Below, one piece after another: positions 17,869 through 57,013 of a stretch of 64,000 nucleotides of DNA (the stretch's first letter is position 1; each line of letters starts with the position of its first letter). The position numbers and the translations under genes are program-made. The notes under the pieces were generated by a model that had not been told where the DNA came from, ran no database searches, and saw nothing but the letters and a program-made list of their open reading frames with translations. The stretch comes from Patescibacteria group bacterium. GTDB taxonomy: Bacteria; Patescibacteriota; Patescibacteriia; UBA10025. The DNA is taken from contig JBHPFX010000003.1 of the NCBI GenBank assembly GCA_042570925.1, positions 10,149 through 74,148 of the forward strand, in the 5' to 3' direction.

Positions 17869-18426
17869 ATGTTAATGATTCGACTTTCCCGAGTCGGTAA
17901 AAAGAAACACCCAACTTTTCGCCTTATCGTATCTGAAAAATCCAAAGATACTCATGGCGACTTTTTAGAACTTCTCGGAACGTATGATCCACATACATCT
18001 CCAGCTACTGTCACTTTAAAAGTAGATCGGATCAAACACTGGATTTCAAACGGTGCCCAGCCATCAGGAGTCGTTCATAATATTCTTATTGATCATGATG
18101 TTATAAAAGGTGAGAAAATCCGTGTGGCCAATATCCGTAAGAAAAAAGAATCTAAAGAAGGCGAAGAGGCTTCTGAAGGTAAGACGCCATCAACTGAGAA
18201 AAAGGAAGAAGTAAAAAAAGAGGAGCCAAAGAAAGAGGGTCCTTCGGCAAGCTCCCCTCGGCCTGCCATCGCCCTGAAGGGCTCAGGCCCTGAACGGGAG
18301 GTCTCGGGACCGAAGGCAGGAGCTGATGAGAAAAAGGAAGAAAAACCTCCCGAGAACAAAGAGCCGGCAGAAAAGAAAGCTGAAGAAAAACCCCAAGACG
18401 ATAAAAAGACTCCAGAGAAACAGTAG
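17869..18426 (+). CDS. rpsP: 30S ribosomal protein S16 with a roughly 100-aa Lys/Glu-rich tail
   Basis: MLMIRLSRVGKKKHPTFRLIV..DRIKHWISNGAQPS. The tail contains a G+C-rich insert at 18241-18317. Confidence 0.85.
   Translation: MLMIRLSRVGKKKHPTFRLIVSEKSKDTHGDFLELLGTYDPHTSPATVTLKVDRIKHWISNGAQPSGVVHNILIDHDVIKGEKIRVANIRKKKESKEGEEASEGKTPSTEKKEEVKKEEPKKEGPSASSPRPAIALKGSGPEREVSGPKAGADEKKEEKPPENKEPAEKKAEEKPQDDKKTPEKQ
18241..18317. repeat. G+C-rich palindromic insert inside the rpsP tail
   Basis: Bounded by CCTTCGG and CCGAAGG. The core CAGGCCCTGAACGGGAGGTCTCGGGACCGAAGG recurs at 22136-22187, 29040-29085, 42810-42855 and 46355-46440. Confidence 0.6.
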
Positions 18427-20123: not shown

Positions 20124-21615
<1,492 letters not shown>

Positions 21616-21889: not shown

Positions 21890-21965
21890 GGGCACGTAGC
21901 TCAGTTGGTTATCCCTCGCTATAGCTCGGGACTTAGGAGCGCTTACTGTACTTTACAGAATTCCC
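21890..21965 (+). pseudogene. 5' part of a second, diverged tRNA-Ile-like copy (outer copy)
   Basis: GGGCACGTAGCTCAGTTGGTTA (acceptor plus D arm), then an insert and a degenerate GAGCGC..anticodon region. Its acceptor partner CGTGCCC is at 22202-22208. Confidence 0.5.
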
Positions 21966-21970
21966 TTGGT

Positions 21971-22047
21971 GGGCGCGTAGCTCAGGTGGTTAGAGCGCGT
22001 CACTGATAATGACGAGGTCGGAGGTTCGAGTCCTCCCGCGCCCACCA
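21971..22047 (+). tRNA. tRNA-Ile (anticodon GAU), CCA encoded
   Basis: GGGCGCG acceptor, CTGATAA anticodon loop, GGTTCGAGTCC T arm, CGCGCCC-A-CCA. Full cloverleaf. Confidence 0.9.
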
Positions 22048-22123
22048 AGGGAATGAAGTGTACCCGACTTTCATGTGAGGTCACTGACCCGTCCTGAGTC
22101 CTGAGCGAAGTCGAAGGACGAAG

Positions 22124-22212
22124 GATAATGACGAGCTCGGCCTTCAGCTCTGAGGCCTGAACGGCTCAGAGCTCAGGCTCGAAGAGAGGTTCAAATCCTC
22201 CCGTGCCCACCA
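22124..22212 (+). pseudogene. 3' part of the outer tRNA-Ile-like copy, with a roughly 50-nt G+C-rich insert in the variable region
   Basis: GATAATGACGAG, then the insert (22136-22187), then GGTTCAAATCCTCCCGTGCCCACCA. Confidence 0.5.
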
Positions 22213-22292: not shown

Positions 22293-22345
22293 GCCGAGGT
22301 AGCCTGTCTGCCGATAGGCAGGCTCAGTAGTAGAGTCCCGCACCA
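22293..22345 (+). pseudogene. 5' part of a second tRNA-Phe-like copy (outer copy) with a hairpin insert in the D arm
   Basis: GCCGAGG-TA-G, then the insert CCTGTCTGCCGATAGGCAG, then GCTCAGTAGTAGAG. Its acceptor partner CCTCGGC is at 22563-22569. Confidence 0.45.
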
Positions 22346-22365
22346 TGTGCCTGGAGGTATATAAT

Positions 22366-22437
22366 GCCTGGGTAGCTCAGTGGTAGAGCGAAGGACTGAA
22401 AATCCTTGCGTCGGCAGTTCAATTCTGCCCCCAGGCA
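22366..22437 (+). tRNA. tRNA-Phe (anticodon GAA)
   Basis: GCCTGGG acceptor, GCTCAGTGGTAGAGC D arm, CTGAAAA loop, GGCAGTTCAATTCTGCC T arm, CCCAGGC-A. Confidence 0.9.
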
Positions 22438-22440
22438 CAT

Positions 22441-22573
22441 GTGCGGGATAGACTCTGGACTGAAAAATCCTGGAGCCTGTCCTGAACATTGCGCGGAGCG
22501 AAATGATTCAGGATCGGCAGTTTCCGCCAAAGGCGGATCCGCCCATGGCGGACAATTCTGCCCCTCGGCACCA
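22441..22573 (+). pseudogene. 3' part of the outer tRNA-Phe-like copy, with a 30-nt double-hairpin insert in the T loop
   Basis: GGACTGAAAAATCC anticodon arm, then GGCAG-TT, the 30-nt insert (22523-22552), then CAATTCTGCC-CCTCGGC-A-CCA. Confidence 0.5.
22523..22552. repeat. 30-nt G+C-rich double-hairpin insert (copy in the tRNA-Phe-like T loop)
   Basis: TCCGCCAAAGGCGGATCCGCCCATGGCGGA. The near-identical TCCGCCAGAGGCGGATCCGCCTTCGGCGGA lies at 42719-42748 inside nusA. Confidence 0.7.
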
Positions 22574-22658
22574 CGCGGCAGTAGTTTCCTTCATTTCATT
22601 CAGGACAGGCAGTTGGTAGTATGGTTTCAAAAAACTTTTAGATAATTTATTGGATAAT

Positions 22659-22733
22659 GCGGGAGTAGTTCAGTAGTAGAACGCTTCCTTGCCAAGGAAG
22701 AGGTCGCGGGTGCGAATCCCGTCTCCCGCTCCA
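22659..22733 (+). tRNA. tRNA-Gly (anticodon GCC), CCA encoded
   Basis: GCGGGAG acceptor, TTGCCAA loop, CTCCCGC-T-CCA. The T loop reads TGCGAAT, with G where U55 is expected. Confidence 0.75.
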
Positions 22734-22875
22734 TCAAGTCTTAAAGAAAAACATTCCTAGATTGATTTGCATGCTTAGCAAATTAAGCAGGAGGAAGCGA
22801 CGCAACTGCTTGCGTCGCGTCGGGATGAACAGGGCGAACGATGTCGCCTGAGGCGACCGTGAGCTTCGGCCCGAA

Positions 22876-22899
22876 GGGCGAGTCCGGTCTGCCGCTCCA
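22876..22899 (+). pseudogene. Duplicated tRNA-Gly(GCC) 3'-end fragment
   Basis: GGGCGAGTCCGGTCTGCCGCTCCA versus the tRNA GGGTGCGAATCCCGTCTCCCGCTCCA. G+C hairpins precede it. Confidence 0.45.
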
Positions 22900-23029
22900 T
22901 CGTGCCATATGTATATAGACCCCAAGATGGTGGGAGTTTGTTATAATAAATAAAGACGAGGCCGCCGTGGTGGAACCCCGCTTCTCCTTCACTGCGTTCA
23001 GGATACGCGGGGCAGGCTGGTAGAATTGT

Positions 23030-23113: not shown

Positions 23114-23220
23114 TTAGCAAGAATAAGACTCTCGAAGCGAAGTCCTGAGCGTAGCGAAGGGCGAAGCGGAGATCCCGTCCTGAGTTTACCGAAGGACGGG
23201 ACGACCGGCGGCATATGACA

Positions 23221-28184: not shown

Positions 28185-28946
28185 TTATAATTCAACAACT
28201 ACCGGATAGTGATCCGATGCCAAGTTAGTTATCTTATTTTTTATAACCTTGTAGGACTGTAAAAATGGTAGTAATGACTTTGAAAGAAATATGTAGTCAA
28301 GTCGCATTGGTGAATGCTTAGTGCCGACTTTGGATAATGTTGGTACTGTCGTGTCTATGTTCTTTTCCAATAGTTGTGCTGTGTCGTGGTATCCAGCTTT
28401 CAGAATTTTATCAATAATATCAAACCGTAATTTTCCATTTGTAGTGAATTTTCTTATTCGAATTTCATCAAAGTCCTTTATGATATTATCCTTGTACCCA
28501 TCATTTCTCGACAAGGAATTCATATCTCCCATGAGAATCTTATGCGAAAAAGGTTTTTGATACGCAATGATACTCTCAATCTCCGGTTGACGAAGATCTT
28601 CAGTATATGGCGTTAAATGAAGGCTCGCAATTGATATTGGGCCATAGATGGACTCGATTGTAGCTATTATACACGCACGAGCCAAGGGTTTGAGCATGTA
28701 AATATTCTTTAAGGGATATTTTGAAAAAACGGCTATATGCCAATCTCCCTCACCTGATAAGGATATTTTAAAATACGGAAAACCGGTTTTTACGGCGAAT
28801 TCCTTAAGTAGCGCATTATTATTTTTTGCAAACGTATTTGCTTCATTAAGCATTAAAAAATCCGGGGACTCTTTTTTTACTACCTCAATAATTTGAGGGA
28901 GTGTCTCCACAGCCCCGTTTAAAATATTGTACGTCATGAATTTCAT
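28185..28946 (-). CDS. Endonuclease/exonuclease/phosphatase (EEP) family protein
   Basis: TYNILNG, LMLNEAN, GDMNS and SDHYPVVVEL motifs. Confidence 0.75.
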   Translation of the reverse strand: MKFMTYNILNGAVETLPQIIEVVKKESPDFLMLNEANTFAKNNNALLKEFAVKTGFPYFKISLSGEGDWHIAVFSKYPLKNIYMLKPLARACIIATIESIYGPISIASLHLTPYTEDLRQPEIESIIAYQKPFSHKILMGDMNSLSRNDGYKDNIIKDFDEIRIRKFTTNGKLRFDIIDKILKAGYHDTAQLLEKNIDTTVPTLSKVGTKHSPMRLDYIFLSKSLLPFLQSYKVIKNKITNLASDHYPVVVEL

Positions 28947-28968
28947 ATAACTTGTGTGATTGGCTCTT

Positions 28969-28979
28969 TGGAGCGGGTA
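28969..28979 (-). pseudogene. Duplicated 3' end of tRNA-Gly(UCC), followed by a G+C-rich tract
   Basis: TGGAGCGGGTA is identical to the tRNA 3' end at 29161-29171. G+C-rich hairpins lie between the two (28980-29100). Confidence 0.45.
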
Positions 28980-29039
28980 GGACCCCGCTATCCAGCGGGA
29001 TCTCGCAATTATATTTCTTATTGAGCTCGAGAATCGAGT

Positions 29040-29085
29040 TCTGGGCGCCCTTCGGTCTGAGGACCTCAGGATCGAAGACTTCGTT
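29040..29085. repeat. G+C-rich palindromic element copy
   Basis: CCCTTCGGTCTGAGGACCTCAGGATCGAAGACTTCG, related to the 18241-18317 core. Confidence 0.45.
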
Positions 29086-29160
29086 CACTCGCGCCGTTCA
29101 ATTCCAGGTATTGTATGTGTAAATCGATGCTCACAAGTTTGAAAGTGAAATCGAACTATT

Positions 29161-29235
29161 TGGAGCGGGTAACGGGAATCGAACCCGTATCTTCAGGTTG
29201 GAAACCTGACATAATAGCCATTATACTATACCCGC
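29161..29235 (-). tRNA. tRNA-Gly (anticodon UCC), CCA encoded
   Basis: The reverse complement reads GCGGGTA..TTTCCAA..ACGGGTTCGATTCCCGT-TACCCGC-T-CCA. Same architecture as E. coli tRNA-Gly2. Confidence 0.9.
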
Positions 29236-29248
29236 TTGAGATGTAGCA

Positions 29249-29572
29249 TTAAGGTTGCCACAAAAACTTGTCGAGGTCAATCCAGAAATTGTTTTCTCGT
29301 TTAATTACTTTTACCCCATCCTTTTGTAAGAGTACAGATTGTTCTTCTGCCGGATGGTCAAGGCATGTAGTGCTTATTCTTCCTTCTCGATTTATTACTC
29401 TCTGCCAAGGAATGTGTTCCAATTTACCCCCATCCATCGCGTGCATGGCCCAGCCGACCATCCGAGCTGACCTCGGTGATCCGATAAGAGCGGCAATTTG
29501 GCCATACGTAGCAACCCTGCCTTTTGGGATTTTTTTGACCATATCGTAAACTTTTTGATAAAAATTTGGCAT
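29249..29572 (-). CDS. Alkyltransferase-like (ATL) protein of the MGMT DNA-binding family, lacking the acceptor Cys
   Basis: KIPKGRVATYGQIAALIGSPRSARMVGWAM..IPWQRVI. PWQRV replaces the PCHRV active site. Confidence 0.75.
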   Translation of the reverse strand: MPNFYQKVYDMVKKIPKGRVATYGQIAALIGSPRSARMVGWAMHAMDGGKLEHIPWQRVINREGRISTTCLDHPAEEQSVLLQKDGVKVIKRENNFWIDLDKFLWQP

Positions 29573-29575
29573 GTA

Positions 29576-30565
29576 CTATTTCTCAAACTTTATGAAATAT
29601 TCTTTCGGTTTGAGCTCCTCTTTAACAATCTTTTTCCACTGAGGATTGATATCGGAGACACGCTTTATCTTTTCTTCATGATAGCAAAGCGGATCAACTG
29701 CTCGAGATTTTACAAACACATGAGCATCAAAATCTGAGGGGGAATTTTTGTACTTAATTTTATTATTCATACGATCCCAAAAAGACTGTGCCTTAGTATC
29801 GTTTGAGAGGAAAGGCGCAATTTTGTTTAATACTATTTGATCAGTGGTATATAAATCTTGTTCCACAATGTATCCCATTGTTATTGCATGTGCTATGTAG
29901 TCTCCGACTGTTTGAAACATGACCCCAGACCCCATATCAGCCCAGTAGCCCTTATTAAGCTCATAAAAAAGCTTGGCAAACGTAGCCGCATGGGTGTACT
30001 GAGAAAATATCCACTGATTATCCTTAACAGTAAGATGAGTAAGGAGGTTTTGAGCCTCTTGTATAGAAAAATCATATTCTTCATATGCGATTCCATCTCT
30101 TAGTGCATAATCGATACGATCAGCGCATAGATCCGGTATATTATTTTCTTTTAAAGGGAAATGGGAATCATTCAGTATATGGTCAAGATCAAAATGGTAT
30201 TTTGATAGTATAGAAGGAATATCTGTTTTTCTAATGTAATTGTTAAAAATGCTGTCCTGATGATTTTGTGTTTTTTCAGTTCCCTGCTTGAGTATGTAGT
30301 CAATGCCGTGCGAAAAAGCAGAATGAGATGCATCATGAATTAATCCGGAAATTTGCTCATCAATAGCTGCGCCGTATTTTTTTAATAACAGCATCACACC
30401 CACTGAATGTTGAAATCGATTTGGAGAAATGCCCGGGTGAAAAGGTTTACGAAAAGCTCCTTGTTCGACACCTTTTAAACGTTGGAGGGCGGGGCTGTTG
30501 GTAATTTCAACGAGTACTGGTTCGGTGATCTCTATTTTCCCATAGATTTGGTCCTGATAGTGCAT
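29576..30565 (-). CDS. HD-domain phosphohydrolase
   Basis: RFQHSVGV..GLIHDASHSAFSH (the H..HD..H pattern). Confidence 0.7.
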   Translation of the reverse strand: MHYQDQIYGKIEITEPVLVEITNSPALQRLKGVEQGAFRKPFHPGISPNRFQHSVGVMLLLKKYGAAIDEQISGLIHDASHSAFSHGIDYILKQGTEKTQNHQDSIFNNYIRKTDIPSILSKYHFDLDHILNDSHFPLKENNIPDLCADRIDYALRDGIAYEEYDFSIQEAQNLLTHLTVKDNQWIFSQYTHAATFAKLFYELNKGYWADMGSGVMFQTVGDYIAHAITMGYIVEQDLYTTDQIVLNKIAPFLSNDTKAQSFWDRMNNKIKYKNSPSDFDAHVFVKSRAVDPLCYHEEKIKRVSDINPQWKKIVKEELKPKEYFIKFEK

Positions 30566-30737
30566 AGTATAGAGATTATAGCATACACAAAATTTACTCC
30601 ATGGAAATAATTTACTATAACGATTTAACCGATTTTACATGTTCTGCTTTAATCTTTTATAAAAATACCAAAAAGGACAGACTCGTAATCTGCCTCTTTT
30701 TGAATTTATTTGATGTTTTGTGATATTTGAACGTTTT

Positions 30738-31346
30738 TCAAATAGACTGTTTGCGTACGTACAGTATTCTTTGTAAAGCGGTAAAGTGACACAAAATTGC
30801 AAGAGTAATAATGGTACTTCCAAGCACTATTTCACCTTGGGAGATGAAGGAAGCCACAAGTATGCTTATAAATAATACTGCCATTCGTATTTTTCGCTTC
30901 ATAAGGCCAAAACGGCAAAAGAACCCTACTCCTTCTGCACGCGCACGAGTATAGCTTACGAGAATTGAGCCGATAAACGCTAAAAGGATAAACAGAGAAA
31001 TAATCAAACTTTTTTCCCAGAAAAATACTAAAAGGCCGAGGTAGATGAATCCCTCGGCATATCGATCGATGGTTGAATCAATAAATGCTCCAAATCGACT
31101 TTCCTTCTTTGCATATCGCGCGAGCAGGCCATCAACAATATCGTTAAGTTCAGTTACTAAAATCATAATACTAGCCCAAAAAAGCGATCCTGATACTAAA
31201 AACAGAAACGAAAAAAAACTTGCTATAAGGCCACCTATGGTAAAAGTAACTGGTTGGACATTAAAATGAGACAGTAGCCTCCCCAGTGGAAAGAAGAAGG
31301 GATAGACGGCCTTTTTTACCTCCTCATGTGCTATATCTTGGGCCAT
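30738..31346 (-). CDS. CDP-alcohol phosphatidyltransferase
   Basis: DIVDGLLAR....SRFGAFIDSTIDR = D.xDG.xAR...G...D...D. Confidence 0.75.
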   Translation of the reverse strand: MAQDIAHEEVKKAVYPFFFPLGRLLSHFNVQPVTFTIGGLIASFFSFLFLVSGSLFWASIMILVTELNDIVDGLLARYAKKESRFGAFIDSTIDRYAEGFIYLGLLVFFWEKSLIISLFILLAFIGSILVSYTRARAEGVGFFCRFGLMKRKIRMAVLFISILVASFISQGEIVLGSTIITLAILCHFTALQRILYVRKQSI

Positions 31347-31477
31347 AGCACTCTAAAGAAAACAGTTAAATAAGCGGATTATTAAGCAAATGCAGTTCTT
31401 AAATCCGGATATACGATACATGAATGTATCATATCCGTAAAGGGCCTATATGCTTATACAATAGGTTGTTTTTTTGG

Positions 31478-31560
31478 TCGGGATGCCCGGACTCGCCCTG
31501 CGGGCCTGGGTGCTGCGCTCGCTCGCACCTCTCGAGTCAAATCTCCCAACCTAAACTCAA
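31478..31560 (-). pseudogene. tRNA-Pro 3'-half copy with a G+C-rich insert at the T loop
   Basis: In RNA sense: TTGGGAG..CTCGAGAGGT, the insert GCGAGCGAGCGCAGCACCCAGGCCCGCAGGG, then CGAGTCCGGGCATCCCGA. Confidence 0.5.
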
Positions 31561-31596
31561 TCTTGAATAACTGGATTATGTTGTACTTTTGAAAAA

Positions 31597-31634
31597 TCGG
31601 GATGCCCGGACTCGAACCGGGGACCTCTCGCTCC
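31597..31634 (-). pseudogene. Exact copy of the tRNA-Pro 3' half (38 nt)
   Basis: TCGGGATGCCCGGACTCGAACCGGGGACCTCTCGCTCC is identical to 31683-31720. Confidence 0.6.
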
Positions 31635-31682
31635 TGTTCAGCCCGAGCCACATAATAGCCAATAAAATAATCCTGCGCTGAG

Positions 31683-31756
31683 TCGGGATGCCCGGACTCG
31701 AACCGGGGACCTCTCGCTCCCAAAGCGAGCGTTCTAGCCAACTGAACTACATCCCG
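31683..31756 (-). tRNA. tRNA-Pro (anticodon UGG)
   Basis: The reverse complement reads CGGGATG-TA-GTTCAGTTGGCTAGAAC-G-CTCGC-TTTGGGA-GCGAG..CCCGGTTCGAGTCCGGG-CATCCCG-A. Confidence 0.9.
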
Positions 31757-31812
31757 ACTCAGAGCGAGATTTTTTAGTATGATATTAAGATTCTTAATGT
31801 TCACAGCGAGGG

Positions 31813-31849
31813 CCAAAGCGAGCGTTCTAGCCAACTGAACTACATTCCG
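31813..31849 (-). pseudogene. Copy of the tRNA-Pro 5' half
   Basis: CCAAAGCGAGCGTTCTAGCCAACTGAACTACAT is identical to 31721-31753, then diverges. Confidence 0.55.
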
Positions 31850-31851
31850 CG

Positions 31852-31925
31852 TGGAGGCCACGGGCGGAATCGTTTCCGGGGCGCTTCGCACGCTTGCGCC
31901 CTTCGATTCCTAACCTTCCAAGCCT
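31852..31925 (-). pseudogene. tRNA-Cys 3'-end copy interrupted by a G+C hairpin
   Basis: TGGAGGCCACGGGCGGAATCG is identical to 31964-31984. It is followed by the GGGCGC..GCGCCC hairpin insert and a T-loop remnant. Confidence 0.5.
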
Positions 31926-31963
31926 CTTGTTTTTTAAAGTTACCAAACGATGAAATATCACTT

Positions 31964-32038
<75 letters not shown>

Positions 32039-32102
32039 ATCATTAATGCGTACGAGGAGCGTACCAGAAAACTTCTTCCTTTTCAATAGAAGTAAGTCAG
32101 AA

Positions 32103-32657
32103 TTAGACTTTCTTCAATACAAAAGGTATTTTTTTAAAATCCTTTATTAACACGTCCCTCATCGAACCTCTATACAGAGCAGCTGCGGGATGATAAAGAG
32201 GAAAAAAGATTTGCCCCTTTCTTCGATAGGGATTGCCGTGTACTTGTGATATTTTAAAATCTTCAGGAAGGAAGCGATGCATAGAGTGTCTACCCAGTGG
32301 AATGATGAGTTTCGGTTTTATAATATCAATCTGTTTGTAAAGATATAACGTAGTGCATGTTTCAACTTCAGACGGTTCGGGATCACGGTTATCAGGGGGC
32401 CGACATTTTACAATATTTGTTATGAATACATCTTTTCGAGTTAGATTAATGAGTGTGAGCATTTCATCAAGAAATTTGCCCGCCCCTCCAACAAACGGTC
32501 TTCCGAGCTCATCCTCTCGTTTACCGGGTCCTTCACCAATGAAAAGAAGATCGGCATCGGCATTTCCTTCACCGGGTACTGCATGAGTTCGTTGCTTACC
32601 AAGAGGACACTGGTCACATCCTGCGATATCTAATCCGATTTTATCTAGATCGGCCAT
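32103..32657 (-). CDS. Uracil-DNA glycosylase, family 4
   Basis: C.QCPL, GEGN..A.LLFIGEGPG..ED..G.PFVG.AG..L and the HP.A..Y motif. Confidence 0.85.
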   Translation of the reverse strand: MADLDKIGLDIAGCDQCPLGKQRTHAVPGEGNADADLLFIGEGPGKREDELGRPFVGGAGKFLDEMLTLINLTRKDVFITNIVKCRPPDNRDPEPSEVETCTTLYLYKQIDIIKPKLIIPLGRHSMHRFLPEDFKISQVHGNPYRRKGQIFFPLYHPAAALYRGSMRDVLIKDFKKIPFVLKKV

Positions 32658-32671
32658 TATTCTCTACTTAG

Positions 32672-33046
32672 TTATTCCAGTAATAAGCGCGCACGCTGGC
32701 AGTCTTCCTCTATCTGCGTGATGAGTTCCCGGGTCGATCCAAATTTCTTAAATGGCCGGATTTTCTCTACAATTTCAGCAATAAGTTTTTGTTTGTACAA
32801 ATTACCTTCAAAATCTAACACATACAATTCCACTTTTATTTGCCCAGGATGAATTCGATTCTTATCCCCCATAATAAGCAATCCATTATGCTTCTTTTGA
32901 GCAATAAAAATTCGCGCAGCATATATGCCATCCTTCAAAGCAGTGGGAATACGCTTACAGTCGATATTTGCCGTAGGGTACCCGTACTTAACACCGAGAC
33001 CATCACCTTTAATGACAATTCCCTCAAGTGTATACAAGCGCTTCAT
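32672..33046 (-). CDS. Riboflavin kinase (stand-alone RibF C-terminal domain type)
   Basis: G.V..G.G.G...GYPTANI..........GIYA pattern and a beta-barrel sized ORF. Confidence 0.7.
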   Translation of the reverse strand: MKRLYTLEGIVIKGDGLGVKYGYPTANIDCKRIPTALKDGIYAARIFIAQKKHNGLLIMGDKNRIHPGQIKVELYVLDFEGNLYKQKLIAEIVEKIRPFKKFGSTRELITQIEEDCQRARLLLE

Positions 33047-33819
33047 AATTTTATCGTACGAATAAGGTGTTTGTGAATTTTACCGTTACTGGCAATCAGA
33101 CTTTTACTTTTATAATTCCATTGTTTTCCGTCAAGGTCGGTTACTTGTCCACCTGCCTCTCTTATGAGAAGAACGCCCGCAATAATATCCCACAGGTTTG
33201 ACGGGGGAGCGAGATAGCACCCTTCGATTCTACCGGCAGCCATATAGGCAAGGCTGAGACATCCACTTCCAAAAACACGCGTGTTAAGAAATGATTTCCA
33301 TAAGTATCGAAGCGATTTCGCTATTCGAACTCTAGAACGATAGTCACGTGAATAGCCCACAGAGACAATACTGTGAGAACTACGCTTTTCCGGAGAAACA
33401 CGAATCTTTTTTCCATTGAGTGTTGCCCCCTTTCCTTTTTCAGCAATATAGAATTCATTCAAAACAGGTGCGAAAGTCACGCTTACCAATGGCTCATGAT
33501 TACAGAGAAGAGAAATGGCAACACAAAAAAGCGGATTACCAATCGAGTAATTGGTCGTACCATCGAGCGGATCTATTACCCATTGGTATGTACCCGGATT
33601 GTTTTCGAGTCCCGTTTCTTCGCTTAAATAATCGTGATTCGGAAACTTTCTTTTAATGGTCTTAAGAATAATATCGTTTGCCTCAATATCTGCCTTTGTA
33701 ACTATTTCATGCTTGCTCTTAAGATGAATATCTTTCTTCTTAAGTTTCCGGTGATGTTTTGCCAGATACAAACCGGCTTTCTTCGCCGCCTGGACTGCAA
33801 TGGATCGATATACTGACAT
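33043..33819 (-). CDS. Inositol monophosphatase family protein
   Basis: LSEETG, WVIDPLDGTTNY and the W.D.A.G motif. ATG 33819 (MSVYRSIAVQAAKKAG) is preferred over the track start. Confidence 0.8.
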   Translation of the reverse strand: MSVYRSIAVQAAKKAGLYLAKHHRKLKKKDIHLKSKHEIVTKADIEANDIILKTIKRKFPNHDYLSEETGLENNPGTYQWVIDPLDGTTNYSIGNPLFCVAISLLCNHEPLVSVTFAPVLNEFYIAEKGKGATLNGKKIRVSPEKRSSHSIVSVGYSRDYRSRVRIAKSLRYLWKSFLNTRVFGSGCLSLAYMAAGRIEGCYLAPPSNLWDIIAGVLLIREAGGQVTDLDGKQWNYKSKSLIASNGKIHKHLIRTIKL

Positions 33820-33823
33820 GTTT

Positions 33824-34333
33824 TTAAAGTTCCTCCAATGAAAGTAATTTCGCCTCTCCTGTCGCCGTATCATATGTCGCAAGTGTTGCCGGTGCAAAAA
33901 TCCCACCCAAAGTACCTGGATTTAACATCAAAGTGTTACCCACCTTCTCCTCAGCCTGAATATGATTATGACCGTAGCAGACGAGGTCGTAGTTACCCGA
34001 GGCTGCTAGATTTTTGGCAATAGCTGGGTAATGATTCATGGCGATTTTTTTACCATCAATCTCAATTTCGGCAAGTTCACCATGAAGCAACACGTTATGT
34101 AGCGCTTTTTCACTGATAAGCTTTTGCATCAGAAAACGATCACCATCAACGTTCCCAAATACTACATTAATAGTTCCCGGAAACTTCTCTGCCAGCACGT
34201 TCACAAGTATCGATGGAGCACACAGATCTCCGCAGTGTAATAACGTTTTAATTCCCTGTTTATTAAACCACTCAAGTACTTTTGAAATATTTTCGATATT
34301 GTCGTGAGAGTCGGAAATAATTCCTATAAGCAT
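33824..34333 (-). CDS. YfcE/MJ0936-family metallophosphoesterase
   Basis: ISDSHDN, HCGD, GNVDGD and GHNH motifs. Confidence 0.8.
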   Translation of the reverse strand: MLIGIISDSHDNIENISKVLEWFNKQGIKTLLHCGDLCAPSILVNVLAEKFPGTINVVFGNVDGDRFLMQKLISEKALHNVLLHGELAEIEIDGKKIAMNHYPAIAKNLAASGNYDLVCYGHNHIQAEEKVGNTLMLNPGTLGGIFAPATLATYDTATGEAKLLSLEEL

Positions 34334-34390
34334 AGTTTTTTTAATTACTCTTACTTAGTACTATACCATGAGAACGCATAATTCGCAGGT

Positions 34391-35014
34391 TTATATATAC
34401 CCTTTCATCGAATAATACATTGTTGCCCCATATTCTCTCATAATACTCCAGAAATCAACCAGACGGTCTATGAGTGATATTCGGGGGACTAAGTCAGGAT
34501 CTGCCGGAATACATGTCACTGAAATATTTTGTGCCTTAAAGACGTTACAAGCACGCTTAGAATGAAAAGCGGAAGTTACTACAAGTGCATCCTCCCACAT
34601 ATTTTCCGCCATAATTTCTTTGCTAAAAAGCGCGTTCTCATAGGTGCTGGTTGATTCTCGCTCGGTGATAATATATGTTTCTGGCACTCCAAGTGATTGA
34701 GCATGCAGCGACATCTGCTCACTTTCGTAATAGGAAGTGTTTTCATACTGGCCTCCGCTCATCAACATCATGCTCCCATAGCTTTGTTCAAGAAGTATGG
34801 CGCCCTGTAGAACTCTCTCTTGCCCATTTGGCGTCAGGCTGCCATTGTCGTGGAGGCCACTTCCCAAAACAATAATTACATCAGCATTCTGAAGCTTATC
34901 TTCGTGTGTAAGTGGGACTGAAATCCATTCATTTAAAGGAGTAAATCCAATAATAAAAATTAGGATTAGGCAGAAAATATAGAATACAATTGCGACACTT
35001 CGAATTATGGGCAT
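34391..35014 (-). CDS. DUF218 (YdcF/SanA-like) membrane-anchored protein
   Basis: N-terminal TM, then DVIIVLGSG....G.....R, TSA.H..R. Confidence 0.6.
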   Translation of the reverse strand: MPIIRSVAIVFYIFCLILIFIIGFTPLNEWISVPLTHEDKLQNADVIIVLGSGLHDNGSLTPNGQERVLQGAILLEQSYGSMMLMSGGQYENTSYYESEQMSLHAQSLGVPETYIITERESTSTYENALFSKEIMAENMWEDALVVTSAFHSKRACNVFKAQNISVTCIPADPDLVPRISLIDRLVDFWSIMREYGATMYYSMKGYI

Positions 35015-35018
35015 GATA

Positions 35019-35873
35019 TTACGTTGAATTACGAAGTTTTTTTAATATTCCAAGATCATCAGCCTCCTTACCGTCTTTGGGAGTTTCAAGTACCATATCA
35101 ACCTTTTTCAATTTTGGATGGTTAACAAGTGCACGAAATCCATTAAGGCCGATGTTGCCCATGCCAAGGTGCTCATGACGATCTTTATGCTCTCCGAGGC
35201 CAGCCTGTGAATCATTGGCATGAATAAGCTTAAGATACTCTAATCCGATATGTTGGTCGAATTGTCCCAGTGTATGCTGAACTTCTTTTTTTGATCGCAG
35301 GTCATACCCTGAGGCAAATGCGTGACACGTATCAAAACACACCGCGGCTTGTGGCTTCGAGGTAGTCAGCTTTGTTTGTTTAAGAAGAAAATTGAGATCT
35401 TTAAATGTGTCTCCTACAACTTTTCCCGCACCTGCGGAATTTTCCAGCAAGAGAATTGAGTTTCCCTTGTAGCCGGCTAGAATTTTTTTTAATCCCTCAC
35501 CCACTTGTTTTAAGGCTGCTGTATCGCCAAGATCTTTTGCCGATCCGAGATGAGTCATGACATACTCCACACCCAACAAGCTTCCTCGTTCAAGCTCTTC
35601 GCGAATAACCTCGATTGAGCCGAATCGAATACGATTATTTGCCGAAGCTAGATTGATATAATATGGCGTGTGAATATAGTACTTTTCAAAGCCATGTTTC
35701 TTACAGGTCGACTTGAATTCATCAATAAGAGATTGTGTGAGCTTCGGTGCAGGACCACCACGTGGAGAGCGCGAAAACATCTGGAAACACTCGCACTGTG
35801 AATTATGAGCATTTTGCGGTGCGAGTGCGATTGAGCCGGCTATCGACACATGCATGCCAAAAAGCATAGACAA
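35019..35873 (-). CDS. nfo: Endonuclease IV (AP endonuclease)
   Basis: TIM-barrel Nfo pattern: GMHVSIAG, YYI.HTPY.INLAS, HLGS, LLEN.AG, CFDTCH.FA.GYD, HANDS...G...DRHE..G.G.IG. Confidence 0.85.
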   Translation of the reverse strand: MSMLFGMHVSIAGSIALAPQNAHNSQCECFQMFSRSPRGGPAPKLTQSLIDEFKSTCKKHGFEKYYIHTPYYINLASANNRIRFGSIEVIREELERGSLLGVEYVMTHLGSAKDLGDTAALKQVGEGLKKILAGYKGNSILLLENSAGAGKVVGDTFKDLNFLLKQTKLTTSKPQAAVCFDTCHAFASGYDLRSKKEVQHTLGQFDQHIGLEYLKLIHANDSQAGLGEHKDRHEHLGMGNIGLNGFRALVNHPKLKKVDMVLETPKDGKEADDLGILKKLRNST

Positions 35874-35881
35874 GGGGATAA

Positions 35882-37168
35882 TTATTTTTCTGTCGCCGCC
35901 TGTTCGAGAAGTTTGAGAACTTTCTTATTTCCCTGAATAGTCGTGAGATACTCTTTATATTCTTTCGAATCAATTTTTTTTATCACATCGGGCTGATCTT
36001 TGTAGTTTTCTTTTTCGCGCGCTACCTGCTGTTCAATTTCTTCAGGCGAGGCGGTGATATTTTCCTTTTTTGAAATCTCTCTCATTACAAGTGCGCTTTT
36101 TATGCGCTTTTCAGCCTGTTCGGTCATACCCTGCCGCAACTCATCTTCAGTCTTTTTGATGCTTGAGAGATAATCCTCAAACTTCATACTTCGTCGCTCA
36201 ATATCTGCTTTCAGCTCCTCAACCATGCGATTGAGCTCATTTTGTACCAGCATATCCGGAAGTTCGCCGAATGTAGATCGGGCAATGACAGCCTCAAGAA
36301 GTGCCAGCTCAAAACGCTGTTGCTCCTTCTCATTTTTTTCATCATGAATATTTTTTTCAACCTGTCTGCGCATATCGTCTACGGTCTCAAACTTTCCTAC
36401 CATTTTAACAAAAGCATCATCAAGAGCGGGTAAATCAATCTTATAGACTCCCTTAACAGCGACTTTGAATAGCGCTTCTTTGCCTGCGAGTGTTTTTTGA
36501 TGGTATTCTTTAGGAAATTTCAAAGTGAATTCCTTTTTCTCATTCTCGCTCATACCAATGAGATGATCCTCAAAACCTGGTATAAATTTCTCTTCTCCAA
36601 TCATTACAGGTTGATTTTTTGCCTCTCCTCCATCCATCGGTACTTTGTCGCGAAATACGCTCAAATCGATTTCAACTTTATCACCTTTCTCTGCTTTACG
36701 CTGGACACGCTCTTCTTTTGCATACATTCGGCGGATATTATTCACTGTTTCATCAACATCTTTTTGTTCAACATGTACATCTTTTTTCTTTTCCTTAAAC
36801 TTCGTATAATCGCCGAGTGTTATTGTCGGTAAGAGGGAGACGATTGCAGTGTAGACGAAGGGATTTCCCGGAGCGATTTTTTTCAATTCAATTTTTGGGT
36901 TACCAATCGTCTCAAGCTTGTGCTCAAGTACTGCCTTTGGATATGTGTCCTGCACAGTTAGCTCCGCTGCGTGCTGGTAGATGCGCATTGCTCCCACTTG
37001 TTTTTCAACTAGATCATATGGAGCTTTTCCTGGCCGAAAGCCCTCAATGGTTATCTCCTTAGAGATATCTTCAGCAGCTTTGGTGAGATATTTTTGGAGC
37101 GCCTCTACAGGGACCTCAATAGTGAGTTCTAATTGATTTTTTGGAAGTTCCTTACGTGATATTTGCAT
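35882..37168 (-). CDS. tig: Trigger factor
   Basis: N-terminal ribosome-binding domain with GFRPGKAP, a central PPIase-like segment and a helical C-terminal domain. Confidence 0.85.
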   Translation of the reverse strand: MQISRKELPKNQLELTIEVPVEALQKYLTKAAEDISKEITIEGFRPGKAPYDLVEKQVGAMRIYQHAAELTVQDTYPKAVLEHKLETIGNPKIELKKIAPGNPFVYTAIVSLLPTITLGDYTKFKEKKKDVHVEQKDVDETVNNIRRMYAKEERVQRKAEKGDKVEIDLSVFRDKVPMDGGEAKNQPVMIGEEKFIPGFEDHLIGMSENEKKEFTLKFPKEYHQKTLAGKEALFKVAVKGVYKIDLPALDDAFVKMVGKFETVDDMRRQVEKNIHDEKNEKEQQRFELALLEAVIARSTFGELPDMLVQNELNRMVEELKADIERRSMKFEDYLSSIKKTEDELRQGMTEQAEKRIKSALVMREISKKENITASPEEIEQQVAREKENYKDQPDVIKKIDSKEYKEYLTTIQGNKKVLKLLEQAATEK

Positions 37169-37170
37169 GG

Positions 37171-38622
37171 TTATTCTTTCGGGCGGTTATCAATAATCCG
37201 TTTTTCCTTAAGCTCTGTTTCCATGCCAAGCTGTTGGAGAAGTTGGTCAAGGGGGCGCTGCACCATATCGACGTTAACCATAATTTCATTATGGATTTTT
37301 CTGGCAACCATTTCTTTTATGCTATCGAAATCTTGACCTTGCTTCGGACAGATATATAAGACTAATTCATCAAGGCCATACGGATCATTATCCTTTTTCT
37401 TGATTTCCAGCTGCCATTCCTCAATTTCAGACATACCGGAAAGAAGAGGAAAGAACTGATTCAAATTCACTAACTCACCTTTTACTTTTGTCAGACGAAA
37501 CTCTTTGAATTCCGATGAGCGTTGAAGGTCAGGCAGAATTCGTGGAACCGTTCGTCCACAATGAACACAGGGGCCATACTCGATCCCTTGAGTCATATCA
37601 CCTGTTTTATAGCGAATCACAATTGTTCCACGCCAATCGAGCGCGGTATAGACCAATTCTCCGGGATGTCCGTCTGGAACGCGCTTTCCTTCCTTATCGA
37701 CAACCTCGAAATAGCCAATATCCGGGTAAATATGATACCCCTCACTCTCATGACACTGGATCCAGGCCGTTTTTCCTTCGGTAAATGCATAGGTAACGAA
37801 TATCTGCAGATCTTTTGTACCCATTTCTTTGCAAAGTTCTTTCACTTTATCCCGCAGGCCCGGGCTTGCTCGCTCGCCGCCGAAAATAATATATTTCAGA
37901 TTTTCCAGATTCCTTCCTTCTTTGCGTGCTGTACGGAGTAAGTGATAGATATAGCCAGGAATTCCGAGCAGAAGCCCACCTTTCATCCTCTCAAGTCCGT
38001 CAAGAATTTTCTGTGTACCTGATATTTTTCCTCCCCCTGTTTGCAATGAAGTCAAACCGACTGTAGTGAGACCGAAAAATGCAAGCCAAAAGGCAAGATG
38101 GGGGGCGTAAGGAAACGCATTAATTGCTACAATGTCATTTGGGATACCGATGACGTTGAACATTCTCTTCGCACTTTCTTTCAGCGTTTCAATATCGCGC
38201 GCTGAATAAGCAAAGGGGGTGGGGAGCGCCGTTCTGCCCGTTGTGAAATGAATATGAATGGGCTTATATTCCCACTCGAGTTTTGGCTTTGGGTCTTGGC
38301 CGGTAAGCTTTTTAACTATTAGCCCAGCCAATCTTCCCGGAGATGAATGTTTTTTCAGGAGTTTTTCATCTGGTTGAAGAATGAACTGACGGGGCTTGGC
38401 GGGATCTTCTTGTGTCGGCGCCAGGTCGGTTTTTGTGGTAAATGGAATTTTTGCCAAGTCATCGGTTGTCTGGATATCCTTAAAATTGATATTATGCTTC
38501 TTAAACAGTTCTCGATAATACGGTGAAAAAGGCGCCTCATAGCGCATGAGATGCTTAATTTTTTGGTTTTGGACCTCCTGTATTTCCTCCTGAGATAAAT
38601 GAGAAAGTTCTGACCATTCCAT
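37171..38622 (-). CDS. Adenylate-forming ligase of the PaaK / F390-synthetase type
   Basis: FTTGRT (P-loop-like), YGP.E.. pattern, and size and order typical of phenylacetate-CoA ligase-like enzymes. Substrate unknown. Confidence 0.6.
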   Translation of the reverse strand: MEWSELSHLSQEEIQEVQNQKIKHLMRYEAPFSPYYRELFKKHNINFKDIQTTDDLAKIPFTTKTDLAPTQEDPAKPRQFILQPDEKLLKKHSSPGRLAGLIVKKLTGQDPKPKLEWEYKPIHIHFTTGRTALPTPFAYSARDIETLKESAKRMFNVIGIPNDIVAINAFPYAPHLAFWLAFFGLTTVGLTSLQTGGGKISGTQKILDGLERMKGGLLLGIPGYIYHLLRTARKEGRNLENLKYIIFGGERASPGLRDKVKELCKEMGTKDLQIFVTYAFTEGKTAWIQCHESEGYHIYPDIGYFEVVDKEGKRVPDGHPGELVYTALDWRGTIVIRYKTGDMTQGIEYGPCVHCGRTVPRILPDLQRSSEFKEFRLTKVKGELVNLNQFFPLLSGMSEIEEWQLEIKKKDNDPYGLDELVLYICPKQGQDFDSIKEMVARKIHNEIMVNVDMVQRPLDQLLQQLGMETELKEKRIIDNRPKE

Positions 38623-38642
38623 ATAAAAATTTTCTTAGTGAA

Positions 38643-39269
38643 TTATTTACTTAATTCTAGGACACGATTAATAATTTGCGAGGTAAGATCCCGAAGCAGT
38701 TCATGAGTGATCGGCTTATCGTATGCCTCAGGGAATGTCATCGGTTCTCCAATAGTTATTCGAAGATAGTGCGGGTTGGTTAAATGTTTTACGATAATGC
38801 TTTTTAACCTTCTTGACTGATGATTGTAAAGGCCCACAGGTATTACTGGCACTTTTGACCAAAGTGCTAAACGTGCCACTCCCGTCTTACCGCGATTATT
38901 ATCCATATCACTTTCTTCAAGGATACCACCTGGAAAAATGCCCACAATGCGCCCTTTGTGTAAGTACTTATTGGCAACGTTCAGGCACTGCTGACGATTG
39001 TTTGAATCGAATGGAATACATCCTCCCCACCATTCAGCCACAATCTTTTTCCATAGCCAGCCCCAGGGGGCTATGCGGGTGATAAAGCGAATTTTACGGT
39101 TTATTTTATTTATCACTGCTGCGGCGATGAATGCGCCGTCGAGCGGACTCGTATGATGACACGCAAGAATAAAAGGACCCTTATAAGGAATATACTCTAG
39201 TCCGCTTACTGACCTAGTATAAAAACGAAGTAGCGGGAGAAGAGTGAATCGGGAAATTGGATATGCCAT
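38643..39269 (-). CDS. PlsC-family acyltransferase, tandem paralog 1
   Basis: HHTSPLDG (H.x4.D), GIFPGG, GKTGVARLAL. About half the residues are identical to the next gene by eye. Confidence 0.75.
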   Translation of the reverse strand: MAYPISRFTLLPLLRFYTRSVSGLEYIPYKGPFILACHHTSPLDGAFIAAAVINKINRKIRFITRIAPWGWLWKKIVAEWWGGCIPFDSNNRQQCLNVANKYLHKGRIVGIFPGGILEESDMDNNRGKTGVARLALWSKVPVIPVGLYNHQSRRLKSIIVKHLTNPHYLRITIGEPMTFPEAYDKPITHELLRDLTSQIINRVLELSK

Positions 39270-39301
39270 TAAGAGTTTGTTTACAGCGATTGAGTTATAA
39301 T

Positions 39302-39931
39302 CTACTTTGCGCTTAGTTCTTCAAGGCGATTAACGACGCGCCTGGTAACTTCTCTTAGTAAGTCATGTGTGATCGGTTTGTTGTAAGCGTCAGGAAATGT
39401 CATTGGTTGGCCGATAGTAATCCGCATGTTATGAGGATTCATGAGATGTTTAATAATCATTGCTCCCCGCTTAACAACATGGAAATTATGGAGTCCTACG
39501 GGAATGACCGGCATCTGAGACCATAATGCAAGTCGGGCGACGCCCGTTTTACCTCTTTTGCGCATCTTGTCGGATTCCTGTAAAAGACCGCTCGGGAAAA
39601 TTCCCACTATCTCCCCTTTTTTCAAATACTCCATTGCAGTTTCAAGACATTTACTTGGATTTGTTTTGTCGAATTGGATTGATCCCGCCCATCGCTCAAA
39701 TATTGGCTTTTTCCAGAACCACCCTCTTTTTCGAACATTTGAGATAAAGTGTAGCTTTCTTTTAACTTTTGAAATTATTACCGATGCTATAAAAATACCA
39801 TCAAGCGTTCCAGTATGTTTGCATGCAATGATATAGGATCCTTCCTTCGGGATGTTTTCAAGTCCTGAAATAGAGCGTATAAAAAACTTCAGAAAACGGG
39901 GTATAAAATGGCGCGCAATCGGATAGGCCAT
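39302..39931 (-). CDS. PlsC-family acyltransferase, tandem paralog 2
   Basis: KHTGTLDG, GIFPSG, GKTGVARLAL. Confidence 0.75.
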   Translation of the reverse strand: MAYPIARHFIPRFLKFFIRSISGLENIPKEGSYIIACKHTGTLDGIFIASVIISKVKRKLHFISNVRKRGWFWKKPIFERWAGSIQFDKTNPSKCLETAMEYLKKGEIVGIFPSGLLQESDKMRKRGKTGVARLALWSQMPVIPVGLHNFHVVKRGAMIIKHLMNPHNMRITIGQPMTFPDAYNKPITHDLLREVTRRVVNRLEELSAK

Positions 39932-39940
39932 ATCGTTATA

Positions 39941-40570
39941 TTAGAATGTATACGGCTTTCCGCTTAGTGTGCTAATAGCTTTCATAATTCTGCCAGTGAC
40001 TTCGTGCAGTAGTTCCCCAGTAATTGGCCGGTTATAGTATTCTTCAAGGGAGATTGACTCACCAATACGGATATGGAATTTTTTTTTCTGAAAGAAGTAA
40101 ATCCATGATCGAATAGCACTTCTTGTCGCTGGGCCGGTAATTCCAATCGGAATAACGGGAGTTTTTGTCCATAGTGCTAATCTTGCTGCACCGGTTTTCC
40201 CTCTCAGAAGTTCTGCATGTATATTTCGGGATCCTTCGGGATATAGGACGCATATCTCTCCTTTTTCCAAATGACGTTGTAAATGCTTCAGGGCTGATGC
40301 GGGCGAATTTCTTTCAACAAACGTCGTACCGGTCCATTGACCAAGCTTCCGACCTCCGGGAAATCTCCAATACTCTCCAAAAGACATGAAATGCAGTGAT
40401 CGCTTTAATTTTGTATACAGTACCCCGAAAAGGACTAGCGGATCGAAATAACTAATGTGATTTGGGACGAGTAATGCAGGTCCATGAACGGGCAGGTTTT
40501 CAAAACCCTCGATATTCTCAACTCTACTTGCTGCCCACGAACTTAACGTTTGGACCAGGCGCTGTCCCAT
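39941..40570 (-). CDS. PlsC-family acyltransferase, tandem paralog 3 (more divergent)
   Basis: NHISYFDP, LYPEGSR, GKTGAARLAL. Confidence 0.75.
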   Translation of the reverse strand: MGQRLVQTLSSWAASRVENIEGFENLPVHGPALLVPNHISYFDPLVLFGVLYTKLKRSLHFMSFGEYWRFPGGRKLGQWTGTTFVERNSPASALKHLQRHLEKGEICVLYPEGSRNIHAELLRGKTGAARLALWTKTPVIPIGITGPATRSAIRSWIYFFQKKKFHIRIGESISLEEYYNRPITGELLHEVTGRIMKAISTLSGKPYTF

Positions 40571-40575
40571 ACGTT

Positions 40576-42570: not shown

Positions 42571-42595
42571 ATATTGGTTTATATGTTATTAATTC

Positions 42596-44197: not shown

Positions 44198-44304
44198 ATG
44201 TCTATTGTGTGTTTAAAAAATCTTTTAATAAAAAAAACTAGTCTTAATAAAAACTAGTCTCTGAGCGGAGTATACAGCGGCAAGTCAAGAAATGCAAGTG
44301 TCAA

Positions 44305-44658: not shown

Positions 44659-44708
44659 AAAGAAAATCGCTTAGCGCAAGCGCTATTCGGTTGTTAGTAT
44701 GTAATTTT

Positions 44709-45260: not shown

Positions 45261-45279
45261 ATATGACAGTATACCATTT

Positions 45280-57010: not shown

Positions 57011-57013
57011 TAT

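Follow-up and report, generated by a model that had tools for sequence, protein, structure and literature searches.

We describe a group of short G+C-rich repeats in a 64,000-nucleotide (nt) stretch of DNA, the window, from a Patescibacteria group bacterium of the candidate phyla radiation (CPR; GenBank assembly GCA_042570925.1, 107.8-kb contig JBHPFX010000003.1, positions 10,149 to 74,148 of the forward strand). A preliminary description of this DNA had recognized a single palindromic core in five places: the tails of the genes for ribosomal protein S16 (rpsP) and NusA (nusA), the variable region of an outer tRNA-Ile copy, and the DNA downstream of tRNA-Gly(UCC) and of cmk. These five places probably represent two tiny, imperfectly palindromic, G+C-rich insertion modules, here termed A and B, which are selfish and non-autonomous. 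The modules form recognizable families, nest in one another, differ by presence or absence at an orthologous site, occupy genes in frame and, in coding DNA, are filtered by length. We infer that the copies are themselves functionless and that they would be moved in trans by an enzyme, perhaps one that works on hairpins of single-stranded DNA.

Module A and its copies in the window

Module A is 31-36 nt long, with the consensus CC(A)TTCGGCCCTGArGG..TCAGGCCC(T)GAAyGGG. Its ends, CC(A)TTCGG and CCTGAAyGG, are imperfectly complementary and lie within one continuous palindrome. They are constant across the delimited copies, which start with CC, stop with GGG and have G on the left and A (usually AG) on the right, giving the junction ..G^[CC...GGG]^A(G)..; the nusA copy deviates, having A^ rather than G^ on its left.

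The window contains three copies, all oriented on the + strand. The copy in rpsP (18266-18298; 33 nt, CCATCGCCCTGAAGGGCTCAGGCCCTGAACGGG) is located at CCTG^AGG. The gene (17869-18426, +) encodes 185 residues, comprising a Pfam S16 domain (residues 8-66) and a Lys/Glu-rich tail; within the disordered C-terminal part of the latter, module A forms the centre of a composite in-frame insert (18238-18325, +; approximately residues 124-152). The insert has a G+C content of 68%, against 41.9% for the window as a whole, and is thus indeed the G+C-rich island it had been taken for. Compared with the usual 35-nt form, this copy is two bases short (CCATC-G-CCC), leaving 33 nt, and is translated as (P)AIALKGSGPER. 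The second copy (42802-42837, +) is a degenerate one of 36 nt in the tail of nusA (42596-44197, -; 533 residues). All NusA domains identified by Pfam (NusA_N, S1 and KH) end N-terminal of the long tail that holds it. Together with its adjoining arm it encodes SLRSETSQSGLKPLGS (approximately residues 448-466), and it is reversed relative to the gene because nusA is on the - strand. The third copy (46396-46429, +; 34 nt) is intergenic, downstream of cmk (46522-47088, -), a gene identified, like the others, by a Pfam scan of 10 window open reading frames (ORFs). It is 93% identical over 29 nt to sequences in loci L100 and L115. Re-reading of the sequence confirmed the coordinates, translations and open frames given previously, as well as the common + orientation of the rpsP and nusA copies in genes that lie on opposite strands.

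A profile hidden Markov model (HMM; nhmmer) trained exclusively on module A copies from other genomes was then run on the window. It matched rpsP at 18271-18300 (E=6e-10, with 30/30 positions identical to the consensus), cmk at 46395-46430 (E=2.6e-4) and, marginally, the degenerate nusA copy at 42812-42839 (E=0.017); the tRNA-Ile and tRNA-Gly(UCC) sites gave no match to this model. Similarly, a degenerate pattern derived from the rpsP, nusA and cmk copies retrieved exactly those three from the window and nothing from shuffled sequences (0/100). BLAST within the window, on its own, gives weak evidence: rpsP and nusA share 44 nt at 73% identity, and nusA and cmk 28 nt at 82%. The best non-self score exceeded those of all 200 dinucleotide-preserving shuffles for nusA and cmk only; that of rpsP was reached by 9/200 shuffles, and the tRNA-Ile and tRNA-Gly(UCC) sites were at chance level against the same number.

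Module A in other CPR genomes

Scanning one genome per species (n=185,579) with the degenerate pattern yielded 84 loci, 27 of which contain the full core at nhmmer E<=1.1e-7. In these the extended core reads (G)CC(A)TTCGGCCCTGArGG(n)CTCAGGCCC(T)GAAyGGG(AG). All 27 are from metagenome-assembled genomes (MAGs) of low to mid G+C content, labelled Patescibacteria, Parcubacteria, Peregrinibacteria/Peribacteria, Gracilibacteria, Komeilibacteria or unclassified, with four unconfirmed Gammaproteobacteria labels. The remaining pattern loci, mostly in G+C-rich genomes, have no similarity beyond the pattern itself. A stricter module A pattern, applied to metagenome and viral contigs, matched 31 metagenome contigs, about 27 of them CPR-type, and 0 viral contigs.

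The sequences flanking module A are unrelated between loci. When the whole window was compared with the CPR loci by BLAST, the rpsP core was the only match besides rRNA, tRNAs and a pair of conserved coding genes. This core is 88-100% identical to sequences in 20 CPR loci (92-100% in L003, L011, L033, L010, L025, L039 and L041, and 88-97% in the others). Ten module A copies are part of a longer composite that starts at the CCA end of a tRNA or tmRNA; the core is then found 82-101 nt downstream and co-oriented with the tRNA or tmRNA gene.

Module B and the relation among the five sites

Module B (CCTTCrG.TCTGAG..CAGGnTCGAAG) is approximately 26-41 nt in length and was seen only in this genome and its nearest relative. 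The pattern used to detect it, CCTTCrG(n)TCTGAG-N(2-22)-CAGGnTCG, was chosen post hoc, with the data already seen; it has three matches in the window (29049-29074, 46369-46395 and 22141-22181) and 0 in shuffles. The first match belongs to a module B without a core (29045-29079, +), about 80 nt downstream of tRNA-Gly(UCC) (29161-29235, - strand). The second (46369-46395, +) abuts module A in the cmk-rnhB spacer, and the third (22141-22181, +) has an expanded centre and occupies the variable-loop position of the outer, interrupted tRNA-Ile copy.

The arms on either side of module A in rpsP correspond to module B in reverse (left arm, 18251-18265, +, GCTCCCCTCGGCCTG; right arm, 18299-18325, +, AGGTCTCGGGACCGAAGGCAGGAGCTG). 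Once the core at 18266-18298 is removed, this carrier reads GCTCCCCTCGGCCTG|AGGTCTCGGGACCGAAGGCAGGAGCTG and aligns across the junction to the reverse complements of all three module B copies, with scores of 15 for tRNA-Gly(UCC) (reached by 0/1000 shuffles), 15 for the 5' part of the cmk copy (0/1000) and 13 for the outer tRNA-Ile (1/1000). A right arm of the same carrier type lies beside the nusA core (42838-42854, +, AGGTCTCAGATCGAAGG) and aligns to the rpsP right arm with a score reached by 0/1000 shuffles. On these alignments we read the rpsP place as module B reversed and carrying module A, the nusA place as module A with only the right arm of module B, the cmk spacer as module B abutting module A, the tRNA-Ile place as a module B with an expanded centre and the tRNA-Gly(UCC) place as module B alone. 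All five places are related, via two nested modules, because the rpsP carrier aligns to the other module B copies. Thus, the single core of the preliminary description holds for rpsP, nusA and cmk, by both pattern and HMM; the two tRNA sites are tied in solely through module B, and two nesting modules take the place of one element family.

Carriers with and without module A

Module A is always found within a larger palindrome, the sequence of which differs from copy to copy, and three carrier types are known in both the core-bearing and the core-less state. The rpsP carrier has a core-less counterpart at L067:5931-5970(-), to which it is identical at 34/38 positions across the junction (score 28, compared with a maximum of 13 in 1000 shuffles). 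The second type is a short-form hairpin. In the window it occurs without a core at 22098-22119 (+; GTCCTG^AGCGAAGTCGAAGGAC), where it is identical at 22/22 positions to L015:491-512, and in the opposite orientation upstream of tRNA-His (52938-52959, -). In locus L066 the hairpin is filled and reads ...CCCTG[ CCATTCGG ...GAACGGG]AGCGAAGTCGAAGGG, with module A at CCCTG^AGCGAAG. The motif CTTCGACTTCGCTCAGG, previously noted as related to the core, is this hairpin read from the other strand. It does recur, as TTCGCTCAGGRCAGG has 14 window matches at no more than 3 mismatches against 1.9 expected; rather than a separate motif, it is a hairpin of the same modular system that is able to carry the core.

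The third carrier type is a twin hairpin of the form TCCGCC-AGAG-GCGGA-TCCGCC-nnnn-GCGGA, a family separate from modules A and B. An empty copy, TCCGCCAGAGGCGGA-TCCGCCTTCGGCGGA, is present in the NusA tail (42717-42751, +; folding z -3.8), where the 30-nt element is translated as SAEGGSASGG, and a second empty copy lies at the T-loop position of the outer tRNA-Phe 3' half (22521-22555, +). In loci L093, L101 and L108 the twin hairpin is filled with module A at AG^AG. The family, TCCGCCnnnnGGCGGA-TCCGCCnnnnGGCGGA, is shared with other CPR genomes (L116:14980-15009; L077:7166-7186).

A gain or loss of module B is visible at an orthologous site. The genome with the closest S16 (P0002; MAG WY2.bin33; locus L116) shares its gene order with the window (SMC-rpsP-KH-trmD-16S-tRNA Ile/Phe/Gly), with which it is syntenic. 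The window has an empty site in the outer tRNA-Gly 3' half, the hairpin GTCGCC-TGAG-GCGAC with its 4-nt loop (22843-22857, +). At the orthologous hairpin (pairwise alignment, columns 1201-1240), L116 reads ATCGCC-C[ TTCGGGTCTGAGACCCCAGGGTCGAAGACCG ]GAG-GCGAT, that is, it contains a 31-nt module B (L116:15284-15315). The flanks of this insertion, in the spacer after tRNA-Gly, are about 95% identical to the window. The 31-nt segment is itself identical at 31/~34 positions to the tRNA-Gly(UCC) copy of the window (global score 19; shuffle mean -7.3, maximum 4); beyond the window, it alone fits the module B pattern in the 237 loci fetched. The junctions between filled and empty sites are CCTG^AG, CAG^AG and GCC^(T)GAG, with at most one ambiguous G.

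Copies inside genes

The preliminary description had pointed to the rpsP tails of relatives as informative. The closest S16 homologues (72-78% identical) lack the insert segment; more distant tails cannot be aligned. In CarA of locus L023 (Peregrinibacteria), module A lies within a 29-residue segment, STTLRAGETEAVQALRAFRPEREINEPEE, between the two domains of the protein. This segment is absent from homologues that are 67-76% identical, and it has no counterpart in human CPS1, the sole alignment inspected (query 151/181 -> chain 189/189). Further credible coding copies are in a penicillin-binding protein (PBP) of the PBP1A-like type (L046), a TPR protein (L014), a response regulator (L088), an FtsQ-like protein (L095) and GrpE (L036), all five identified by reading the translations alone.

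All credible coding copies (8/8, including 33 nt in rpsP and 36 nt in nusA) are 33 or 36 nt long, whereas non-coding copies are 31-36 nt and only 14/39 are divisible by three (hypergeometric p ~0.001, our own calculation from the tallies). The module A consensus has one forward and two reverse stop-free frames, and all three are in use, with three copies forward and five reverse in their host genes; the encoded peptides include VRPELVEG and LRFAQDD. Such a pattern would follow if the core were itself inserted as a unit and copies that break the frame were purged by selection. Long ORFs over the core in L111, L112, L113, L091, L103 and L110 look spurious (Arg/Pro-rich alternative frames), and the copies in L003, L033, L068, L087 and L108 precede what are probably the real start codons; neither group was counted as coding.

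Other Peregrinibacteria CarA proteins (P0164, P0180, P0165, P0175 and P0139) contain differing in-frame inserts at three variable sites, some with the peptides CHPEPVEG, MVRRAHHD, DFAQQNRIEG and PSTPACRTGRE. Such peptides resemble what related G+C-rich repeats would encode, and element-derived protein insertions may be common in CPR. In NusA, residues ~70-135 (window 43800-44000) form a Lys/Glu-rich internal expansion, which is the source of the excess length of its N-terminal domain (178 residues, against a Pfam profile of 119 positions).

Folding, terminators and flanking genes

Folding energies were compared with those of shuffled sequences. More stable folds than in the shuffles were obtained for the Ile and cmk copies (z -1.6 to -3.0; Ile, -1.6 on the + strand and -3.0 on the - strand), in keeping with the palindromic character claimed earlier, and not for the rpsP (z -0.45) and nusA (z +1.07) copies. 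The commonest combination of core arms contains an A.C mismatch, and no convincing RNA-type covariation was found between the arms of module A. Rfam had no match at the module copies of the window and of 18 loci with strong copies, its only hits elsewhere being rRNA, tRNA, tmRNA and one group I intron. Nor did the positions of the copies relative to terminators, a comparison suggested in the preliminary description, reveal any association: a scan of 28900-46600 found no terminator-like site at the tRNA-Gly(UCC), nusA or cmk copies (29045-29079, 42802-42854 and 46369-46429).

Flanking genes were surveyed in 8 kb around each module A copy, with the ORFs of 27 loci clustered. IS481-like genes were present in 2 loci only, and RecG and chaperone genes recurred through synteny alone. 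No Y1 transposase was found among the 10 window ORFs scanned against Pfam.

Proposed mechanism and alternative explanations

The unrelated flanks, the filled and empty carriers, the insertion or deletion at an orthologous site and the length filter in coding DNA all support the original suggestion of a small, non-autonomous mobile or recombinogenic element. We propose that new modules would go into the middle of G+C-rich hairpins already in place, with module A between G and A and mostly at G^AG. Such insertion would lead modules to pile up in one another and in the interrupted tRNA copies that flank tRNA genes. A copy landing in coding DNA would be kept only if its length were a multiple of three, its frame free of stops and its location a tolerant region (a disordered tail, linker or loop); a surviving copy would be translated as a short Gly/Pro/Ser/Arg/Leu-rich peptide, as in rpsP and nusA. 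The junction, sharply placed at G^A (mostly G^AG) in hairpin centres and lacking an evident target-site duplication, points to a mechanism of insertion yet to be worked out.

Several observations weigh against selfish insertion modules. The copy number of module A is modest, at 3 per 64 kb and <=5 loci found in any genome. The filled/empty comparisons reveal no target-site duplication, clear terminal inverted repeats are lacking apart from the internal palindrome, and no transposase-like family is common to the 27 flanking regions (8 kb around each copy). The collections hold no close relative (nearest S16, 72-78%) and the tails of distant homologues are not alignable, so that an empty rpsP or nusA site could not be demonstrated. 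The module B and junction patterns were both picked after the data had been seen. Finally, the interrupted tRNA halves that bear modules are, by estimate from the alignment, ~93-95% conserved between the window and L116, and the orthologous twin hairpin at the T-loop position has undergone a compensatory stem change, from TCCGCC/GGCGGA to TCAGCC/GGCTGA (L116:14980-15009). The last two observations hint at selection on structure, not pure junk.

These same features also speak for reading the modules as functional structured elements of tRNA and rRNA operons, acting as RNA or single-stranded DNA in processing, stabilization or protein binding, with the gene copies as by-products. To the conservation of the carrier regions, which is about that of the tRNAs themselves, and the compensatory change may be added the ten core copies 82-101 nt downstream of tRNA or tmRNA genes in the same orientation, and the stems closing around the core, which vary in sequence and stay complementary. 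Such a role sits poorly with the occurrence of both orientations inside genes and with unrelated contexts that include the middle of enzymes. Covariation in the core arms is also scant, their commonest combination being mismatched, shuffles match the folding of the rpsP and nusA copies, and Rfam is silent; we judge this explanation distinctly unlikely. Spread without a dedicated enzyme, by gene conversion or illegitimate recombination between hairpins, by template switching at stalled forks or by uptake of foreign DNA, would account for flanks that share no transposase and for the lack of evident target-site duplications. It would also suit the natural competence of CPR bacteria and the position of the insertions in the middle of hairpins, places at which replication stalls and strands could plausibly be exchanged. 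Yet the same 31-36 nt recur with sharp, constant ends in non-homologous carriers, which homology-driven exchange would hardly produce, and template switching would yield novel palindromes rather than identical ones, making an enzyme-free origin very unlikely.

To the idea that coding copies are retained as useful Gly/Pro/Ser/Arg-rich linkers or tails, that is, as adaptive protein expansion segments, we assign little probability at all. Their placement in tails, linkers and loops with open frames would fit, as would CPR CarA homologues that carry many different inserts at the same variable sites. Three frames and both orientations give unrelated peptides, however, identical DNA occupies non-coding positions, and a purifying filter alone can produce the length and frame pattern. 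The chance likeness of low-complexity G+C-rich stretches, named from the outset as what would undo the family, has scarcely any probability left. Its one foothold is that the Ile and Gly sites do no better than shuffles by in-window BLAST. Against it stand the rpsP core, which equals an external consensus at every one of 30 positions (E=6e-10), the absence of pattern matches in shuffles and the junction-spanning alignments, reached by 0-2/1000 shuffles; chance similarity is already refuted for module A.

Selfish insertion modules would be of interest because the small, supposedly streamlined genomes of CPR bacteria from several classes would nonetheless harbour selfish elements of 30-40 nt in essential genes (rpsP, nusA, carA, PBP and grpE) and tRNA operons. 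The modules create spurious peptides and inflate apparent 'CPR-specific' protein insertions, they may confound assembly and binning, and they offer natural experiments on the tolerance of proteins to foreign peptides. A bolder idea, which we consider unlikely, is that module A, and perhaps all of the nested modules together with a widespread GCGnAGC hairpin (see below), is moved by undescribed machinery that recognizes DNA or RNA structure and not a sequence target. If true, structure-recognizing insertion at the G^AG centre of G+C-rich hairpins would explain the absent target-site duplications, the nesting, the affinity for tRNA-like cloverleaves and the spread across CPR classes.

Interrupted tRNA copies and neighbouring features

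In the window, the 16S rRNA gene (20124-21615) is followed by tRNA genes; the window holds no 23S rRNA gene. The modules near tRNAs sit in partial tRNA copies around intact genes. Intact tRNA-Ile, tRNA-Phe and tRNA-Gly are each enclosed by an older and interrupted version of themselves (21890-22212, ~22303-22572 and ~22566-22902, respectively). The outer acceptor strands are mutually complementary and differ from those of the inner gene: the outer Ile pair is GGGCACG (21890-21896) and CGTGCCC (22202-22208), compared with GGGCGCG/CGCGCCC inside, and the outer Gly pair is GCGGCAG/CTGCCGC. Because the outer halves of Phe and Gly are ~93-95% conserved in L116, they may be more than mere debris, and it is a possibility that the interrupted outer tRNA genes hosting modules are conserved functional RNAs.

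Comparable arrangements surround other tRNAs. At 31454-31930 (-), tRNA-Pro is preceded by a copy of its own 5' half and followed by two copies of its 3' half, one with a G+C-rich insert, and tRNA-Cys is followed by a 21-nt repeat of its own 3' end beyond a G+C-rich hairpin. Downstream of tRNA-His, a region of low G+C content (32-37%; 53210-63650) contains 6-7 composite repeats spaced 0.5-2 kb apart. Each starts with a fragment of the tRNA-His 3' end (CCGATAGsGACC), followed by a hairpin CCTTTTTCTCTGAGC...TTCGGAGCAAAAGG and a terminator-like stem, and several are preceded by the motif TTCGCTCAGGGCAGG. In layout, these composites look like single-gene cassettes stacked at a tRNA attachment site. 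In L015 (536-840), a small ORF, by eye GIY-YIG-nuclease-like, lies between a tRNA-Phe 5' fragment and the intact tRNA-Phe, a placement that suggests homing-type insertion into tRNA genes. A tyrosine recombinase gene (50555-51487; Phage_integrase, E=9e-42) is directly upstream of tRNA-Arg (51636-51735), whose leader and trailer (CTCCCCTGGT and ACCAGGGGAG) are complementary and lengthen the acceptor stem; the leader and trailer of tRNA-Ile (ATTCCCTTGGT and ACCAAGGGAAT) do likewise.

Comparison with known small repeats

No earlier description of the modules was found in the literature searched, which is not in itself proof of novelty. The short-form hairpins of the window (22098-22119, 52938-52959 and 23143-23163), one carrier type of module A, are variants of a cosmopolitan hairpin, TGTCATCCTGAGCGnAGCGAAGGATCTC. 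This hairpin occurs in at least 120 viral contigs (loci L118-L237; mean G+C 59%), one of which has 7 copies, and is thus far more widespread than CPR, in contrast to module A with its 0 viral matches. Its centre, GCGnAGC, corresponds to the classic DNA mini-hairpin with a GNA triloop, and tandem G.A pairs flank it. Neither an Rfam family nor a description in the literature was found for it.

Among known repeats, repetitive extragenic palindromes and the paired elements built from them (REP/REPIN) are short, G+C-rich imperfect palindromes, non-autonomous and mobilized by RAYT transposases, probably as single-stranded hairpins. They are extragenic, occur in hundreds of copies in a genome and are associated with both a conserved 5' tetranucleotide and a RAYT gene. 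The modules differ from them in lying inside genes (rpsP, nusA and carA) and in their low copy number, and no RAYT was seen among the 10 window ORFs. [quoted passage not shown] Some of them occasionally lie in an ORF without breaking its frame (PMC10969869). Their usual length is 50-500 bp, however, with terminal inverted repeats, target-site duplications and a parent insertion sequence; for the modules, neither of the last two was found in the filled/empty comparisons and the 27 flanking regions, and the imperfectly complementary ends of module A form part of one continuous palindrome.

The mobile G+C clusters and double-hairpin elements of fungal mitochondria are short G+C-rich palindromes in an A+T-richer genome and are tolerated in frame in some genes and in variable regions of RNAs; they are organellar and presumably unrelated to the modules in sequence. 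The small dispersed repeats (SDRs) that Elhai et al. are said to have described in heterocystous cyanobacteria in 2008 are reportedly tiny palindromes of tens of nt, nested and located in structured RNAs and coding regions without disrupting them. They resemble the modules as small nested palindromes and differ in lineage and sequence, a likeness that serves as a lead only. Rickettsia palindromic elements (RPEs) are known in RNA genes and intergenic DNA. They have also inserted in frame into unrelated housekeeping genes, in which they are translated (PMC10969869). Module A is similarly palindromic, non-autonomous and in frame in unrelated ORFs, with the frame kept open in rpsP, nusA and CarA. 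The likeness is one of mechanism only. RPEs are ~100-150 bp long and confined to Rickettsia, whereas module A, at 31-36 nt, is G+C-rich in a genome of 42% G+C, nests in other hairpin elements and extends over several CPR classes.

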